Assembly (NCBI GenBank): GCA_049840735.1
Contig: JASGJN010000017.1
Coordinates: 1-64,000 of the forward strand
Direction: 5' to 3'
DNA length: 64,000 bases
DNA from: Anaeromyxobacter sp.
Lineage (GTDB): Bacteria > Myxococcota > Myxococcia > Myxococcales > Anaeromyxobacteraceae
Numbering within the stretch: the stretch's first letter is position 1; the number at the start of each line of letters is the position of its first letter. Position numbers and translations under genes: made by a program. A model generated the notes under the pieces. The model did not search any database. It was not told the DNA's origin and saw nothing but the letters and a program-made list of their open reading frames with translations. Shown here in pieces: positions 50,704-58,320 of this stretch.

Positions 50704-50731
50704 AGTTACCATAATCCATATTATCGGACGT
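50704..50731 (-). other. dif: Chromosomal dif site (XerC arm - 6 bp - XerD arm)
   Basis: Minus strand ACGTCCGATAA-TATGGA-TTATGGTAACT; compare E. coli GGTGCGCATAA-TGTATA-TTATGTTAAAT; intergenic, AT-rich, KOPS polarity flips here. Confidence 0.9.
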
Positions 50732-51397
50732 ACTGGGTGGGCGAGGGGAACGGGCTGGATCCGGGCCCGGATGCGGCTGGAAGCCGCCGGAATCGGGCCC
50801 CGGCCTCTATCCCGGTGGCCCCGTTACGCCTTCGGCTCGCCTTCCATCCCCGCGCGGCCTGAGCCTGTCGAAGGCCGCGGTCCCGATCGCCGTTAGGCTC
50901 CCGACCATGAGCGCCCCACACGTCCATCCCGTCCCCGTCCCGCTCGACGGACGCGCCGCGCGCGCGCTCGACCGCCTCGACTTCTCCGACGCCTACGCCG
51001 TCGAGCTGCCGCCCGGCGCCGACGCCGCCTCGGCGCCGCCCTGGGTCCTTGCGCCCATGGCCGTCCGCCACCTGGTGGTCGCGCCGCTCGGCCTCATCGC
51101 CAGCCCCGGCGCGCTCAGTCGCGCCGCCGTGGCCCAGAACCGGACCGGCGATCGCGTCGGAGCCTTCCCCGCCCAGGCGTGCGCGCGGCGAACTGCTGCT
51201 CGGCCTCGACGATCGGCGCCTCGACTTGCGATGCCGGCCAGTTCGGCGTGGTCACGATGCTGGTGCAGCTCAACGGCCCGCTCGGCCGGGCCTACTTCGG
51301 CGTGGTGAAGCTTCTCCACCGGATCATCGTCCGGGCCATGCTCCGGCGCGCCGCCCGTGGGGTGGACCGGCCCAGGTGATATCGATATCGACGGGGT
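50724..51397 (+). repeat. Copy 1 of ~0.7 kb imperfect direct repeat (dif arm + REP-like element + DUF2867-like gene)
   Basis: TCGGACGTAC(T/C)GGGTGGGCGAGGGGAA..GGTGATATCGAT aligns with 57603-58320. Confidence 0.85.
50907..51379 (+). pseudogene. Degraded DUF2867-like gene copy
   Basis: LDFSDAYAVELP..LLGLDDRRLD..LGRAYFGVVKLLHRIIV in three frames, with multi-base deletions relative to 57775-58302. Confidence 0.75.
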
Positions 51398-51696: not shown

Positions 51697-52360
51697 ATGT
51701 TTCGAGTGAAGTTGCTGGCCCTGGTCGTCGTTGGCGTCATGTCACCGGGCGCGATGGTGCGAGCGCAGGGCAAGCCGACCGAGCAGGTCGAGGAGATCCG
51801 GAGGAGTACCTGGATCGAGACCATCCCGGTCGCTCTACCCGCCGGCGTGCCGCTGGCTGGTGTCGTGGGAACGGACGCCGATGGTTATCCGACCCAGTTC
51901 GTGGATCGGCCGGCGCTGAGGAGTCTGCTGCGCAATCGACAGTTCGCGGAGCTCACGGCCGCGTTCGAGTACTTCCAGGCCGAGTTCGAGCGTGACCCGC
52001 ACCGCGAGGTCTGGATGAGCGATGCGACCACGACGGTCGGCATGCCGCATCCGGTGGAGCTCGGGCTGATCGAGGAGTGGATCAAGACGACGCCTCGATC
52101 ATTCGCTCCCTATCTGGCCCGCGCTCGCTACGGTTTCGAGCTTGGATTCCTCTACCGCGGAGACCGGTTGGCCAAGGACACCTCCGCAGCCGAGTTCGCT
52201 GCTATGAAGCGGTCGTTCGCAAATGCGGAGCGTGACGCAAGGAAGGCGCTCGAGCTCAGGCCGCGACTCATCGAGGTCCGGAGCTTCATGATGAAGGCAG
52301 CCATCGCGCGCGGCGATCGGGCTGATGCAACCAGGTGGGTGGCTGAGGGCCTGCGCCAAT
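51697..52360 (+). pseudogene. 5' part of secreted DUF4034-like/TPR protein interrupted by a transposon
   Basis: Signal peptide; EEWIKTTPRSFAPYLARA..LYRG..AKDT; breaks at ..AEGLRQ, the left end of the transposon. Confidence 0.8.
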
Positions 52361-52586
52361 TGTTAGCGCGCGAGCCTGTTGAGGGTCGGAGGCCGGATTT
52401 CGCGCAGGCTGGCTGACGGGCGGGCCGGCAGCGCCATGTAGGTGCCCGCCGCCCAGCCTGCAAACTGGCGGTCACTCACGGTGATGGTAGTCGGTTTAGG
52501 TGGAGGCGGGGCGCTGGCGCGTCGCTGACCACAAATAGGTGACGGGGGCGTGCCGCAAACACGCACCCCGTCGTGCCCTGACTTAC

Positions 52587-53213
52587 TTGCTTGGAGGAAG
52601 CCAGAGCAGTTCTCGAATCGTCTACTTCCGCATCGACGTCAAGTCCTGGGCGGCCAAGCTCCCCACCGTGGACGAGGCGCGTCCGGGTCTCTGCACCGGC
52701 TGCGGCGCTGGTAGCCGGCCGGCCGGTGGTCGCCTGGTGCTGCACGGCCACGGGGTCCGGCGCCGGGATCAGTGGGGCCCGCCCGACGCGACCGCGCCGC
52801 CCCAGGTCACCGAGGTGATCGCCCGCCGGTATGCCTGCCAGGTCTGCGGAGCGGTGCTCCTGGTCGTGCCCAGCGGCGTCCAGCGGCGCCGGCTCTACTC
52901 GGCGCCGGCGGTCGCGCTGGCGCTCGCGGTCTGGAGCCTGGAGCAGCAGACGCCGGCCGCGGTCCGGGCCCGCGTCAGCCCTTGGCGGATCGTCGGGGCG
53001 GCGGCGGCGACACGCTGGACCTCGCTGCGGCGCTGGGCCAAGGCCATCCGCGCCGGGCAGCTCTTCCCGGAAGTCCGCGCCGCGCCGGATGGAGCCTGCC
53101 TCCGCGCCATAGCCGCCCGCGCCGCGACCACGCTGGCGGCCCTGGCCCCGTCGGTTGCTGACGGCCTCCCGCTCGCGACACGAGCCTTCCTCGGAGCCGC
53201 GCATGTGAGCTGA
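52587..53213 (+). CDS. Transposon ORF1: Zn-ribbon + HTH-like accessory protein (DUF6431-like)
   Basis: CTGC..LHGHG.RRR..RRYACQVC..VVP..RRLYS; start uncertain (TTG 52587 or GTG 52539). Confidence 0.75.
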   Translation: MLGGSQSSSRIVYFRIDVKSWAAKLPTVDEARPGLCTGCGAGSRPAGGRLVLHGHGVRRRDQWGPPDATAPPQVTEVIARRYACQVCGAVLLVVPSGVQRRRLYSAPAVALALAVWSLEQQTPAAVRARVSPWRIVGAAAATRWTSLRRWAKAIRAGQLFPEVRAAPDGACLRAIAARAATTLAALAPSVADGLPLATRAFLGAAHVS

Positions 53214-53342
53214 GGGCCATCGCCGCGACGGCGCTGGGGATCTCGCGCCCACCATCCGCGATCCCTGCCCCCGTCGGCGGCCACGTGGGAGGGCTCACGC
53301 TCGGCGGGCGCGGTGATCAGCGGCCGGCCGAGGAGGAGCCCG

Positions 53343-54701
53343 ATGACGAAGTCGTCCCCGAAGTCGCCCAAGCTCGCGCCGAGGGACCACGCAGAGGCGG
53401 TGGCCAGGTTCCGGGCGGAGCTGGTTGGCGCGCTCACCCGCCGCGATCTCGACCACGGACAGCTGCGCGCAGTGCTGAGGGCGCTATCCGCCGAGCGCTT
53501 CCGGCCGCCGGGGGCCGAGGTCACGAAGACGATCTCGTTCACCACGCTGGAGCGGTGGTTCTACGCCTACAAGCGCGGCGGCCTGGACGCCCTGCGCCCG
53601 GCGCCTCGAGGGGATCGCGGCCACGGCCGCGAGCTCTCGCCCGACCAGCGGACCCTGCTTCTCGACATCCGGCGCGAACACCCGTCCGCCTCCGTTCCCC
53701 TGATCCTGCGCACCCTGGTGGCCGACGGGCGCCTGCAGCGGGACGCCGTGTCGGAGTCCACCATCCGCCGCCTCTACCAGGCCAACGGCCTCGACCGCGT
53801 GCCACTGCGCGACGGCGCCGGCGAGCGGGTCCGGCTCCGCTGGCAGGCGGCCGAGCCGGGCGCGCTCTGGCACGCCGACGTCTGCCACGGCCCGGCGCTG
53901 ACCATCGGCGGCCAGTCCCGGCCGCTGCGGATCCACGCGCTCTTGGACGACGCCAGCCGGTACATCCTGGCCATCGAGGCCCGCCACACCGAGCGCGAGG
54001 CCGACATGCTGCAGCTGCTGGTGAAGGCCCTGCGCCGGCACGGTGCGCCCGACGTCCTCTACCTCGACAACGGCTCCACCTACACCGGCGAGGTGCTGCG
54101 GACGGCGTGCCCGCGGCTCGGGATCGCTCTCGTCCACGCCCAGCCGTACGACGCGCCCGCCCGCGGGAAGATGGAGCGGTTCTGGCGCACGCTGCGGGAG
54201 GGCTGTCTCGACCACCTGCCGCCCATGGCCTCGCTCCACGACGTCGAGGTGCGGCTCCTCGCGTTCGTGGACCGCCACTACCACGTGGCCCCGCACGCCT
54301 CGTTGATGGGACGGTCGCCGGGGACGGTCTACGCCGCCCGGACCCGCCTCGCGGACACCCTCGACGAAGCCAAGCTGCGGGAGGCGCTGACGGTGCGTGA
54401 ACGCCGCCGGGTCCGCCGCGACACCACCGTCTCAGTGATGGGCAAGGACTGGGAGCTCGACCAGGGCTTCCTCACCGGCCGCGTGGTGACGCTCGCCTAC
54501 TCGCTCCTCGACGGCGCGCCCTGGATCGAGCACGAGGGCCGGCGCCTCGATCTCCACCCCGTGGATCCGGTCGCCAACGCGCGCCGCAAACGCCTGCCCC
54601 GCAGGCCTGGCGAGGCTCCGACCACCACCACCGACTTCGACCCCACCCAGACGCTGCTCGACGCGGCCACCGGCCGCCGTCGCAAGGATGACGACCGATG
54701 A
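53343..54701 (+). CDS. DDE transposase/integrase (HTH + rve + Mu C-terminal-like)
   Basis: TLERW..YKRGGLDALRP..R.D HTH; WHADV, LDDASR, LYLDNGSTY, GKMERFWRT; GAGGAG RBS. Confidence 0.93.
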   Translation: MTKSSPKSPKLAPRDHAEAVARFRAELVGALTRRDLDHGQLRAVLRALSAERFRPPGAEVTKTISFTTLERWFYAYKRGGLDALRPAPRGDRGHGRELSPDQRTLLLDIRREHPSASVPLILRTLVADGRLQRDAVSESTIRRLYQANGLDRVPLRDGAGERVRLRWQAAEPGALWHADVCHGPALTIGGQSRPLRIHALLDDASRYILAIEARHTEREADMLQLLVKALRRHGAPDVLYLDNGSTYTGEVLRTACPRLGIALVHAQPYDAPARGKMERFWRTLREGCLDHLPPMASLHDVEVRLLAFVDRHYHVAPHASLMGRSPGTVYAARTRLADTLDEAKLREALTVRERRRVRRDTTVSVMGKDWELDQGFLTGRVVTLAYSLLDGAPWIEHEGRRLDLHPVDPVANARRKRLPRRPGEAPTTTTDFDPTQTLLDAATGRRRKDDDR

Positions 54702-55518
54702 AGGACTCGTACCTGACCGCCTTCGGGCTGCAGGAGCCGCCGTTCTCGAAGGAGATCGCCGATCAGGATCTTCTGGCTGCCGACGTCCAAGGCCGCCGTG
54801 GTGGAGGAGCTGGTGGACGCCGTCGAGGACCGGGCGTCGGTGCTCCTCACCGGCGAACCGGGCGTCGGCAAGACCTGCGTGCTTCGCGCCCTGCGGGCCA
54901 GGCTGCCGGCCGCCGGGTTCCGGCTCACCTACTGCCACAACGCGACCCTCGGCCGCCGCGACTTCTACCGCCAGCTCTGCCTGGCGCTGGGGCTGTCGCC
55001 CCACGCCACCGCGGCCGCCGTTTTCTACGCGGTCTCCACCAACGTGGAGGAGCTGGCCAAGGAGCGCGTCCATCCCGTCTTCCTCATCGACGAGGCCCAC
55101 CTGCTCCACGAGCAGATGCTGGGCCACCTCCACATCCTCCTCAACTACGAGTGGGATTCCCGGGCGCTGCTGTCGCTGATGCTGGTGGGACTGCCCGAAC
55201 TGAACGACCTGCTCCAGATGCGGCGCTACCGCTCGCTGTACTCCCGCCTGCACGTCCGGCTGCACGTGGACGCCCTCACGCCGGAGGACACCGCGGAGTA
55301 CCTCCGCTACCGGCTCAAGCGGGCTGGCGTGGACCGCGAGAATCTTCGCCGGTGACGCCGTCGCCCTGCTCCACGAGGCCGCCTCCGGCGGCATGCGGGA
55401 TCTCGACCGCCTCGCCACCGGCTGCCTCCGCGAGGCCGCCCGGCGGAAGCGGAAGTTGGTCGAGCGGGACATCCTGCCCCGGGTCTTGGACCGCGACCGC
55501 CTCGAGCGCGACACGTGA
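54698..55518 (+). CDS. ExeA-type AAA+ ATPase, transposition helper (frameshifts near 54771 and 55341)
   Basis: FGLQEPPFSK, GEPGVGKT Walker A, LIDEAH Walker B, LVGLPEL, SRL, YLRYRL; ATGA coupling to the transposase. Confidence 0.9.
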
Positions 55519-55904
55519 TCGTCTGCGGGCTGTGGGCGGCCCGCCGGCACCTCGTGGCCGTCCTGGTCGGCGACCGGGGCGAGCCCCGCCGCACGGTCCG
55601 CGCCGCGGGCACCGACGACGCCCGATTCGGCCTGCTGGAGTACCTCGCCCACGCCGGCGCCGAGCTGGTCGCCACCGCCGCGCTGGCCCAGGCCGATCCG
55701 CTCCTCGCCCAGGCCGCTCGCCGCGGCATCGCCGTCTGGATCTTGGACGACCAGCTCGCAGCAGCGCTCCTGGCCGCCGCCGGCATCCGCGACCCGGTCC
55801 GCGCTGCGGCCCTGCTGGCCCGCCTGCGGATCGTCCCGGCCTGGCGCGCACATCTGCGCCCTCTCACGCCGGCGATGCCGGCCCGGCAGCTTCCGCTCCT
55901 CTGA
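55515..55904 (+). CDS. Transposon ORF4: small protein resembling an inactivated IS110 DEDD/RuvC-like domain
   Basis: GTGA coupling to the ATPase; IVCGLWAARRHLVAVLVGDRG..RDPVRAAALLARL..LRPL; ends QLPLL. Confidence 0.65.
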   Translation: MIVCGLWAARRHLVAVLVGDRGEPRRTVRAAGTDDARFGLLEYLAHAGAELVATAALAQADPLLAQAARRGIAVWILDDQLAAALLAAAGIRDPVRAAALLARLRIVPAWRAHLRPLTPAMPARQLPLL

Positions 55905-56047
55905 CGCGGTGTAGCCATCACCCTGCGTGCACGCGACCCTGCCAAGCCAGCGATGGCCCTCGGCTTAGCTGCGCGCGCCCCTGTCAGGCAGGTGGTGCCC
56001 ACCAACCATGCTGACGGGATTCCCACCAATCAGGCTGCGCGGCAACA

Positions 56048-56687
56048 CCAATGCCCGACCTGCTACGAGATCCGCGCCGAGTGGGCCGGCTGGGTACTCG
56101 ACGACAAGTGGGGAGGCTCGCCAGAAGAGATCGAGGACTTCGTCGCGAAACATGCCAATCCAGCAGAGCGACGCCACCGCCTCCTGGCCGGCTTCGCGGA
56201 TTACGACCGAGCCGTCGTGCTGCAAATCAAGGACGATCCGGCCGCGCTCAAGGCCATCGAGCGTGCCTGCGCCGTGGGTGACGACTGGCGGTTCTTGAGA
56301 GAGCGAGCCGGCATCAAGCGGCGGCTCGGGGACAACGCAGGCAGGCTGACTGATCTGGATCGTGCGGTCGCTGCTCGTCCCGGAATCCCATCCACGCTTG
56401 CAGTCCGGGCCTGGGCGCTTGCCGATGCGAATCGATGGGAGGACGCTGGCCGAGACCTCCTCTTCGCGCTGCGATGTGAGCCGACCTCCAGGCGAGGCGC
56501 CGTGCTCTATCCTGGGATCGTTGCGAAGCTCAACGCACTCGGCTGGACTGCGCATCAGGAAGGCCGCTCGACCGAAGCGATCCGGATCTTTAGCCTTCTC
56601 CATCTGCTGGCCCCGCAGGACGAGCAGATAGCAAGCCGTGCGGCGGCCGTTCGCCTGTCGGGCGCTGGCGAAGCAGAGCGGAAGTGA
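56048..56687 (+). pseudogene. 3' part of the interrupted DUF4034-like/TPR gene
   Basis: QCPTCYEIR..KWGGSPEEIEDF then TPR-like helices; in frame with the 5' part after removing the element and one TSD (1299 nt, 432 aa). Confidence 0.8.
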
Positions 56688-57602: not shown

Positions 57603-58320
57603 TCGGACGTACCGGGTGGGCGAGGGGAAGGGCTGGATCCAAGGCCTGGATGTGGCTGGAAGCCGCCGGAGTCGCCCCGGTCTCTGCCTCGGCCAACCCC
57701 CATTCCGCCACCCAACCCCGCGCGGCCTGAGCCTGTCGAAGGCCGTGGTCCCGATCGCCGTTAAGCTCACGACGATGACCGCTCCTCAGGTCCGCTCCGT
57801 CCCCGCCCCGCTCGACGGCTTCGCCGCGAACGCGCTCTCGCGCCTCGACTTCTCCGACGCGTACGCCGTCGAGCTGCCGCCCGGGGTCGATGCTTCCGCG
57901 CTGGCCGCCGCCGTGTTCGCCTCAGCGCCGCCCTGGGTCGTCGCGCTCATGGCCGTCCGCCACATGGTGGTCGCGCCGCTCGGCCTCATCGCCACCCCGG
58001 GCGCGCTCCGGCGCGCCGCCGTTGCCCAGAACCTGGCTGGCGAGCTCGTCGGCGCCTTCCCCGTCCTGGCTCGCTCCACCGGCGAGGTCCTCCTCGGCCT
58101 CGACGACCGCCACCTCGATTTCCGCGTCTCGGTCCGCGTGGTCGCCCAGGCCGGCCAGCCGCCCCTGGGCGTCGTGGCCACCTACGTCCGGCTCAACCGC
58201 TGGCTGGGGAGCGCCTACTTCGCCGCGGTGAAGCCGTTCCACCGGGTCATCGTCCCAGCGATGCTCCGGCGCGCGGCGCGGCGGCTGGCCCTGACGAGGT
58301 GATATCGATCTCGGCGGGGT
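57603..58320 (+). repeat. Copy 2 of the dif-anchored direct repeat
   Basis: Starts with TCGGACGT (outer part of the dif XerC arm); rest of dif absent. Confidence 0.85.
57775..58302 (+). CDS. DUF2867-like protein (intact copy)
   Basis: DFSDAY, PPWVVALMAVR, FPVL, LGLDDRHLDFRVS, LGSAYFAAVKPFHRVIV. Confidence 0.85.
   Translation: MTAPQVRSVPAPLDGFAANALSRLDFSDAYAVELPPGVDASALAAAVFASAPPWVVALMAVRHMVVAPLGLIATPGALRRAAVAQNLAGELVGAFPVLARSTGEVLLGLDDRHLDFRVSVRVVAQAGQPPLGVVATYVRLNRWLGSAYFAAVKPFHRVIVPAMLRRAARRLALTR

Follow-up and report, generated by a model that had tools for sequence, protein, structure and literature searches.

The transposon described here, a compact element with four genes in Anaeromyxobacter sp., raises the question of which family it belongs to and what its last gene, ORF4, contributes to its movement. 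Within the window, the 64,000-nucleotide stretch of DNA that was analysed, the element spans positions 52361-56047 (3687 bp), starting with TGT and finishing with ACA. It is flanked by two copies of a 5-bp target-site duplication, CCAAT, on the left at 52356-52360 and on the right at 56048-56052 (chance match of two random 5-mers of the window, p about 0.003), and its terminal inverted repeats are imperfect, with 9 of 14 positions matching, or 15 of 26 when ungapped. The insertion interrupts a plus-strand host gene for a DUF4034 and TPR protein, the 5′ part of which lies at 51697-52360 and the 3′ part, in frame with it after removal of the element, at 56053-56687. In-silico excision of the element with one CCAAT gives a single uninterrupted host ORF, and the DUF4034 profile matches to the left of the element over its positions 4-137 (E 1.4e-7) and, weakly, to the right over positions 222-252 (E 0.088). 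A second copy in the genome, at G000:C14:97824-101509 on the minus strand, has ends identical to those of the window copy. The boundaries are independently proven, since excision restores the host ORF and the second copy ends at the same points. Termini, duplication and inverted repeats are all present as the original prediction had them, and the element is real and recently active.

The two copies differ at 7 positions, all at GATC. In the window the ATPase gene is broken twice, by one extra base at 54771 and another at 55341; the ATPase of the second copy is intact (272 aa) and reads through both breaks. GATC-linked differences are enriched in repeats across the assembly, and the extra bases are probably assembly errors. 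The claim that the element is intact is therefore probably right, given the unbroken sister ATPase and this enrichment. Both frameshifts had been placed at GATC, which needs one correction, as the second site reads GATC in the other copy only and GAATC in the window.

All four predicted ORFs are confirmed, each of them on the plus strand. ORF1 (52587-53213, about 208 aa, start uncertain) encodes a DUF6431-family C4 zinc ribbon, with cysteines C37, C40, C85 and C88 (alignment A2 numbering), followed by a helical, HTH-like C-terminal part. Its fold has no clear match in the PDB (Foldseek best E 0.7; VIA best Z 3.7), which does not imply a new fold. The DDE transposase (53343-54701, 452 aa) combines an HTH with an rve core harbouring D179, D242 and E278, and shows no match to Mu-transpos_C, a C-terminal Mu domain that one relative's transposase does carry. 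The third gene (54698-55518) encodes an ExeA-type AAA+ ATPase (AAA_22) with the Walker A motif GEPGVGKT and the Walker B motif LIDE. Translational coupling is borne out by an ATGA overlap between transposase and ATPase (54698-54701) and a GTGA overlap between ATPase and ORF4 (55515-55518). Of the two accessory genes formerly left unassigned, ORF1 can now be assigned to DUF6431, and the four genes do not form one module. Co-occurrence with homologous transposases holds for ORF1, present in 49 of the 52 related loci having enough upstream DNA, and is the exception for ORF4, found in 4 of 43 informative relatives; ORF1 is a core gene of the family.

This core of DUF6431 protein, IS481/Mu-like DDE transposase and ExeA-type ATPase is assigned, from sequence matches, to a widespread Tn6049-like family, detected in 46 of the 401 genomes that represent the phylum here and also on plasmids of at least 3 other phyla. 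The family has no formal definition, and its features are drawn here from Tn6049 and annotated DUF6431 cassettes. The window element shares the gene order (zinc-ribbon ORF, IS481-like DDE transposase, ExeA-type ATPase) and the end features (TGT..ACA, a short inverted repeat, TGATG-type end repeats and a 4-5 bp duplication). Tn6049 itself, in its copy on pMOL28 of Cupriavidus metallidurans CH34 (L182:22252-25768), is similar in build: it is about 3.5 kb long, with TGT..ACA ends, a 5-bp duplication and TGATG-type repeats near both ends, and carries a Cys-rich ORF, a DDE transposase annotated as IS481-family, an ExeA/GspA-like ATPase and a small fourth ORF. In sequence it is distant, with 27% identity over 428 aa for the transposase (E 1e-25) and 25% over 253 aa for the ATPase (E 4e-14). 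Its first ORF has two CxxC pairs like ORF1 but no match to the ORF1 profile, its 71-aa fourth ORF does not match the ORF4 profile, and a 4-bp repeat is reported for its pHS87a copy, against 5 bp here. Four unnamed DUF6431-DDE-AAA plasmid cassettes (Paraburkholderia PGU19 p3, Geobacillus pGeo12a, Thermobacillus pTHECO01, Rhodococcus pKNR) share the three-gene core and its order, and their transposases are 33-35% and ATPases 30-35% identical to those of the window element; no ORF4 homologue was detected in these cassette regions. The suggestion of a poorly characterised family is upheld, Tn6049 being the closest named member found. The family does have a named member of this layout, whose published descriptions go no further than a promiscuous transposon in 12 copies with a gspA-like ATPase (PMC2864759, PMC4739549). 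Among openly available main texts, neither a paper on DUF6431 transposons nor a mechanistic study of the three-gene family was found.

Placement in IS21, Tn7 or Tn5053 was rejected. The transposase scores best with IS481 and remains under that family's cut-off (NF033577, 164.4 against 224 bits); ISChy3 and IS1604 may be multi-ORF relatives. For IS21, the transposase reaches 30.2 bits against a cut-off of 160 (NF033546) and the ATPase 22.2 against 200 (NF038214); both proteins are closer to those of Tn6049 than to IstA/IstB, with the ATPase matching one IstB at E 0.01. Profile scans of all four ORFs (Pfam/NCBIfam) agree with the predicted DDE and ExeA-type AAA+ transposon devoid of TnsA, TniQ, resolvase or Cas genes: a Tn7-like or CAST element is rejected on finding no TniQ/TnsD, TnsA or Cas effector match and no fixed attachment site, and Tn5053/Tn402 on finding neither TniQ nor the resolvase TniR.

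The left end (52361-52490, plus strand) contains putative transposase-binding sites at 52374 (position 14) and 52408 (position 48), and the right end (55905-56047, minus strand) at 56023, 55999 and 55915, positions 14, 38 and 122 from the terminus. The putative site has the family consensus GCTGGTTGATGG. Of 28 related left ends, 21 have such a site at position 48, and of 28 related right ends, 23 have one at position 38; arrays of a 12-bp motif are present at both ends. Both predicted right-end repeat pairs, 55929/55971 (spacing 42 bp) and 55998/56022, are found where they were placed. By analogy, we infer that the transposase binds the end motifs. Duplications follow the pattern N-Y-N-R-N, with a pyrimidine at position 2 in 11/11 and a purine at position 4 in 8/11, and 9 elements in which no fourth gene is recognised have perfect duplications. 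The flanks of 32 elements differ, with 6 flank pairs locally similar and no common insertion point, which indicates no fixed attachment site. Within the element no Rfam match and neither a sigma-70 promoter nor a terminator pattern was found. The element is almost certainly a recently active Tn6049-like transposon with three core genes, 12-bp end-motif arrays, varied insertion sites and a 5-bp N-Y-N-R-N duplication.

ORF4 (55515-55904, plus strand, 129 aa) is a stand-alone IS110-type RuvC domain. Its AF2 model (pLDDT 90.9) finds the IS621 and ISCro4 recombinases as best Foldseek matches (E 4e-6) and ISCro4 as best VIA match (Z 13.6, rmsd 4.7, 122 aligned), followed by RuvC and Tex/YqgF folds. 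The relationship is also visible in sequence, with the ORF4 profile matching IS621 at E 3.8e-4 and nine IS110 domains by hhalign (probability 85, E 6e-6). At the four catalytic acid positions the window copy has W7, T54/A55, P94 and A97. Across the family, the first catalytic Asp is replaced by Trp in 79 of 102 homologues and the KTDxxD acid pair by Pro and Ala/Leu/Thr; position 55, Ala in the window copy, is Asp or Glu in 80 of 102, and the second acidic position may be retained in the family. The predicted dead RuvC-like protein is borne out, and ORF4 is very probably an optional, catalytically dead domain derived from IS110.

Beyond the fold, ORF4 ends in QLPLL on a low-confidence tail. This C-terminus is conserved as QLxL[LFW], which matches the beta-clamp consensus, published as Q-L-S-L-F/L (PMC3971601). 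Like clamp-binding proteins, ORF4 has a motif of the QL[S/D]L[F/L] type near its end, in a stretch that is exposed. In distant homologues the motif Gln is present in 95/102 and the Leu in 89/102, the third position being free, and a clamp-type pattern occurs within 10 residues of the C-terminus in 65 of 102 distant homologues and in 105 of 109 close ones, against a background of 6 in 3315 coding-like ORFs of the genome. The host encodes the clamp itself, DnaN, at L041:733-1860 (minus strand). In 58 elements without ORF4, no clamp motif was found in transposase or ATPase, save one internal match in a frameshifted copy. The QLxLL terminus thus probably binds the host beta sliding clamp; no inactive, IS110-like, clamp-binding accessory gene was found in openly available main texts.

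Modelled on Mu, Tn7 and IS21, the transposase would probably bind the end motifs, nick at CA-3′ and join the ends to ATPase-loaded target DNA, with a replicative or copy-out route probable given the lack of TnsA and resolvase. The ORF4 tail would grip the clamp, and ORF4 would act as an adaptor, guiding the ATPase or transpososome to DNA that carries the clamp and is being replicated or repaired, in the manner of Tn7 TnsE. A non-essential ORF4 would in this way increase the insertion rate or shift where insertions fall. We give this main reading, ORF4 as a clamp-binding analogue of TnsE that links ATPase-guided insertion to replicating DNA, a probability of roughly 45%. ORF4 may plausibly take part in target selection and may steer where or when the element jumps. 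Orientation showed no bias relative to local GC skew in 11 values of mixed sign, a comparison of very low power, and target choice with and without ORF4 showed no visible difference in 3 against 10 duplications.

The distribution of ORF4 bears on this reading. Among 43 informative transposase-selected relatives, 31 have neither recognised fourth gene and 8 carry an unrelated gene of about 95 aa in the ORF4 slot. ORF4 is optional and dispensable, as the perfect duplications of elements lacking a recognised fourth gene demonstrate. With ORF4 as query, 52 of 59 distinct loci lie inside transposons with a DDE transposase and a separate AAA+ ATPase (34 ExeA-type, the window element's family, and 18 IS21-type) and 7 are unassigned, one of them full length (L061). 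The neighbour classes rest on a restricted panel of query proteins, and as almost every locus is Myxococcota-like, the loci are kin and not independent. These 59 loci yielded no further IS family as ORF4 host. Some IS21 elements carry close homologues, 59-65% identical where ORF4 precedes istA, and a single clade for the ExeA-type copies is rejected (p-AU 3e-7), so ORF4 has been exchanged between the Tn6049-like and IS21 families. An association with tyrosine recombinases at 2 loci was rejected, as both loci match IS21 left-end modules for about 1.26 kb and stop immediately past the region where istA starts. No ORF4 was confirmed in viral contigs, and in the class to which G401 belongs, only G401 itself matched among 300 genomes, one of them unscored.

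RuvC folds recognise branched DNA, and such folds are among the next structural matches of ORF4. The clamp-bound protein could thus act after strand transfer, its body holding the branched intermediate and its tail drawing in clamp and polymerase so that the element is copied or gaps are filled, with no part in target choice. The lack of TnsA and resolvase agrees with this, as does the absence of a duplication from 19 of the 32 elements whose two ends were located, which is expected after cointegrates and rearrangements. Yet elements that need host replication, such as IS3 and Tn3, were not found as ORF4 hosts among the 59 loci; the confinement of ORF4 to ATPase-dependent elements points to an ATPase-guided step instead, and we consider the post-transfer role unlikely.

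Slightly less likely again is an ORF4 that makes no use of the clamp, a nucleic-acid-binding protein or inert passenger from an IS110 insertion whose terminal motif serves some other partner, if any. That motif is short and rich in leucine, most relatives transpose without ORF4, and the unrelated gene in the same slot has no clamp motif. Against this, ORF4 is under purifying selection, as dN/dS is below 1 in 325/325 pairs (median 0.37), its homologues form 198 clusters at 50% identity, mostly stand-alone proteins of 125-140 aa among the 150 matches listed, and the motif Gln and Leu are among its most conserved positions although they sit beyond the fold, in a tail modelled with low confidence. 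That ORF4 regulates host or element, occupying or competing for the clamp and so slowing forks or dampening transposition with no bridge to the ATPase, would suit a clamp motif lacking a catalytic site, a low stoichiometric dose set by coupling after the ATPase and easy loss, but is improbable, as no partner antitoxin-like gene was seen and lasting retention in two transposon families better fits a benefit to transposition.

Returning to the clamp-binding adaptor, target choice by ATPase-dependent transposons outside Tn7 is poorly understood. It is possible, if rather doubtful, that ORF4 represents an undescribed class of portable accessory factor, a domesticated IS110 pseudo-nuclease with a clamp tail, swapped between Tn6049-like and IS21 elements and loading their AAA+ ATPase at replication forks. 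If so, ORF4 would stand beside TniQ/TnsD/TnsE and CRISPR effectors as a third, independently evolved way of selecting targets, and would serve IS21-type elements as a target selector too. ORF4 suits a clean genetic test, being non-essential and small, with a five-residue handle, two unrelated transposon families and natural elements with and without it; two point changes should abolish the predicted clamp contact.

Among known systems, phage Mu (MuA/MuB) shares TG..CA ends and the 5-bp duplication with the window element, which contains no phage genes, and the target preference here resembles the Mu consensus, N-Y-N-R-N. IS21 likewise has a DDE and AAA+ pair, TG..CA ends and several end repeats, ORF1 being extra in the window element. 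TnsE binds the beta clamp and biases Tn7 insertion to replicating DNA (PMC3971601). The likeness to ORF4 is a functional analogy only, that of an optional transposon-encoded factor, with no homology to TnsA, TniQ/TnsD or TnsE here; ORF4, a protein of 129 aa, differs from TnsE in its IS110-type RuvC fold. It is the IS110 bridge recombinases (IS621, ISCro4) whose N-terminal RuvC/DEDD domain resembles ORF4 in fold and detectably in sequence; compared with them, ORF4 has its catalytic acids replaced, lacks the C-terminal Tnp (Transposase_20) domain and has gained a clamp-type tail. The adaptor reading, if true, would give the IS110 RuvC domain a new fate as a domesticated scaffold, as Cas12k is in CASTs.

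The transposon at window positions 52361-56047 is real and was active recently; the family to which it belongs has a name but is uncharacterised. It spans 3687 bp, starts with TGT, ends with ACA and has CCAAT on either side, so that the termini and 5-bp duplication of the original prediction are both present. Excision in silico joins the flanks into a single open frame for a DUF4034 and TPR protein; the insertion divides the Pfam match of this protein in two. A second full copy lies on the minus strand elsewhere in the host genome (C14:97824-101509) without a duplication, between GGATG and GTTGG. The genome also holds a left-end fragment on C17 and several diverged relatives.

Between the two full copies there are 7 differences, every one in or adjoining GATC (3 single-base indels, 4 transitions); the second copy has an intact ATPase (272 aa) and an ORF1 with its own frameshift. 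In the assembly, 24 near-identical repeat pairs, which overlap and are not independent, show 210 differences, of which 43 touch GATC (36 of 203 minus the element pair), against 4.1% of columns. The simplest reading would be systematic base-calling error at methylated GATC. Repeat differences genome-wide (C/T, A/G, indels) concentrate at GATC, which suggests methylation together with assembly errors that may yield false pseudogenes.

In this genome (G000), the element is also represented by fragments and diverged relatives, some cut by other insertion sequences, at C17:363271-363601, C17:349349-349592, C14:107721-107853, C4:233515-233798 and C13:734937-736680. A distantly related element from the same superfamily (~3.5 kb) is found twice on C22 (20217-23737, minus; 275720-279259, plus), one copy with a 7-bp duplication, CCTCGAG; its first ORF is of a different zinc-finger type, its ORF4 homologue ends in QVPLL and frameshifts are many. 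The interrupted DUF4034 gene is itself flanked by a direct repeat of ~700 bp (75% identical; window 50724-51397 and 57603-58320), representing one gene in two copies, the first frameshifted.

The transposase (452 aa) combines HTH_32 and rve domains with D179/D242/E278, and its top NCBIfam model is IS481, scoring under the cut-off. The ATPase belongs to AAA_22 and is, as originally described, ExeA-like rather than IstB-like: its top NCBIfam match is the ExeA-like TIGR03015, though under the cut-off, and IstB is distant. ORF1 has four invariant cysteines; its zinc ribbon and HTH-like helices make a role as DNA-binding cofactor or regulator probable. Each of the 48 sequences in its alignment gives a weak match (best E 8e-5) to DUF6431, a domain found on 14-21% of members in the Atlas clusters nearest by features and on up to 89% among more distant structural rows. 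The trio of ORF1, transposase and ATPase is also annotated in Paraburkholderia, Geobacillus, Thermobacillus and Rhodococcus, on a plasmid in each case. When 401 genomes were sampled across the host phylum, 46 had a transposase match. The closest named loci, like the closest Atlas clusters, come from Myxococcota, which makes a host of that phylum probable.

Among 73 tabulated rows of related loci (six duplicating others), ORF1 is present in 49 of the 52 that extend 900 nt or more upstream, and the ATPase in 63 of the 67 that extend 400 nt or more downstream. A 12-bp motif, to which the predicted right-end repeats at 55998 and 56022 belong, recurs in 28 hand-picked two-ended elements at position 14, at position 48 in 21 left ends and at position 38 in 23 right ends. 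Its matrix, built from the position-14 sites, matches 1.75 sites per kb of window, and the evidence therefore rests on position, not score. Perfect duplications flank 13 of 32 elements with both ends (5 bp in 11, 6 bp in 2) and none flanks 19, although some end calls may be wrong. Position 2 of the 5-bp duplications is a pyrimidine in 11/11 and position 4 a purine in 8/11; no common attachment site appeared among the two-ended elements.

The fourth slot was compared in 43 loci sampled solely by transposase similarity (49 loci, L012-L040 and L147-L166, minus 5 truncated and 1 duplicate). It holds ORF4 in 4, an unrelated ~95-aa gene in 8 and neither in 31, a few of the latter being interrupted elements. 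Perfect duplications border nine elements that lack both genes, so ORF4 is not needed for transposition. A FastTree transposase tree (50 rows of the clade, 3 outgroups) limits ORF4 to one supported clade, with one loss within. The ~95-aa gene, directly behind the ATPase in L025, L032, L033, L034, L036, L037, L039, L146 and L159, probably encodes a helical product and, in the one copy scanned, has no Pfam match.

No family in Pfam or NCBIfam scans names ORF4. Its structure model (pLDDT 90.9) is confident except for the final residues (tail about 60). IS110 recombinases rank first in Foldseek (IS621, ISCro4) and VIA (Z 13.6, then Tex 11.4 and RuvC 11.2), TM to DEDD_Tnp_IS110 domains in the Atlas is 0.77-0.80, and a 72-sequence profile matches IS621 by sequence and an IS110 alignment by hhalign. 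At the catalytic acids of IS621, which we take to be D11/E60/D102/D105, ORF4 has W7, T54 or A55, P94 and A97, in keeping with the dead RuvC-like protein first proposed. Tryptophan fills the first position in 79 of 102 homologues, and the family may retain an acid near the second. Homologues from a library search form 198 clusters at 50% identity (102 of the 150 listed are 120-150 aa), and dN/dS is below 1 in 325/325 pairs among 26 genes. The family C-terminus, Q-L-x-L-[L/F/W], matches the beta-clamp consensus Q-L-S-L-F/L given in PMC3971601, where clamp binding is also reported for TnsE and for peptides of nine IS families. This pattern lies in the last 10 residues of 65/102 distant and 105/109 close homologues, against 6/3315 coding-like ORFs of the genome.

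A context survey covered 96 ORF4 loci, 94 with a profile match and 59 distinct. ORF4 follows an ExeA-type ATPase in 34/59, across at least three transposase lineages; it follows IstB in 7, precedes IstA in 7, ParB-IstA-IstB in 2 and a tyrosine recombinase in 2, and 7 loci, 6 of them partial matches, fall outside any class. Example loci confirmed the identification of IstA and IstB. Of 5 loci checked, 4 have ORF4 between the inverted repeats of IS21; the other is one of the recombinase cases. Partnership with the recombinase was rejected, both cases being IS21 left-end modules broken just after ORF4. IS21 and ExeA-type assignments, these two included, thus place 52/59 loci in DDE + AAA+ transposons. 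Monophyly of the 31 ExeA-type copies is rejected (p-AU 3.4e-7) in a tree that comprises 48 near-full-length proteins and excludes 11 partial rows, and the window ORF4 is 59-65% identical to copies before istA versus 39-48% to those of the second ExeA-type lineage. ORF4 has therefore moved between transposon families.

Some IS21 elements (left ends of L107, L111, L121, L123 and L129; L075, L081) begin with an additional Cys-rich zinc-finger ORF at their left end, after which comes ORF4 or istA; in L097 and L109 a ParB-like gene also stands ahead of istA. Tyrosine-recombinase elements break the IS21 copies of L121 and L123, on two contigs, at almost one point shortly past the istA start region, hinting at a favoured insertion site.

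In Mu, Tn7 and IS21, the transposase binds the element ends and the ATPase marks the target. By analogy, the transposase here would bind the end motifs and the ATPase would mark the target, staggered joining giving the 5-bp duplication, while ORF4 would serve as a TnsE-like adaptor between clamp and ATPase. We tentatively give this role a probability of roughly 0.45; it fits best because a clamp motif sits on a dead nucleic-acid-junction fold that, in this sample, occurs only with ATPase-dependent elements. Against it, ORF4 is dispensable and a weak test showed no orientation bias. ORF4 might instead act after transfer, handing the strand-transfer product over to the replisome, which we consider unlikely, and a passenger independent of the clamp is slightly more doubtful still. 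Least probable is a regulator competing for the clamp.

Apart from the adaptor role, ORF4 is apparently a mobile accessory gene new to the literature, encoding a pseudo-RuvC protein with a clamp-type tail; the open-access literature searched gave no account of the ORF4 family. The original prediction of a poorly characterised family holds in that the portions of literature covered contain no mechanistic characterisation, and needs amending in that a named member, Tn6049, exists. The sections covered say of Tn6049 no more than that this transposon is multi-copy and encodes a gspA-like ATPase (PMC2864759, PMC4739549), and those of PMC10045372, PMC11406308 and PMC9679502 hold no characterisation of a Tn6049-like family. 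The pMOL28 copy of Tn6049 (3517 bp, 5-bp duplication) has a gene order identical to that of our element, with 27% identity in the transposase and 25% in the ATPase, whereas the first and fourth ORFs differ by profile.
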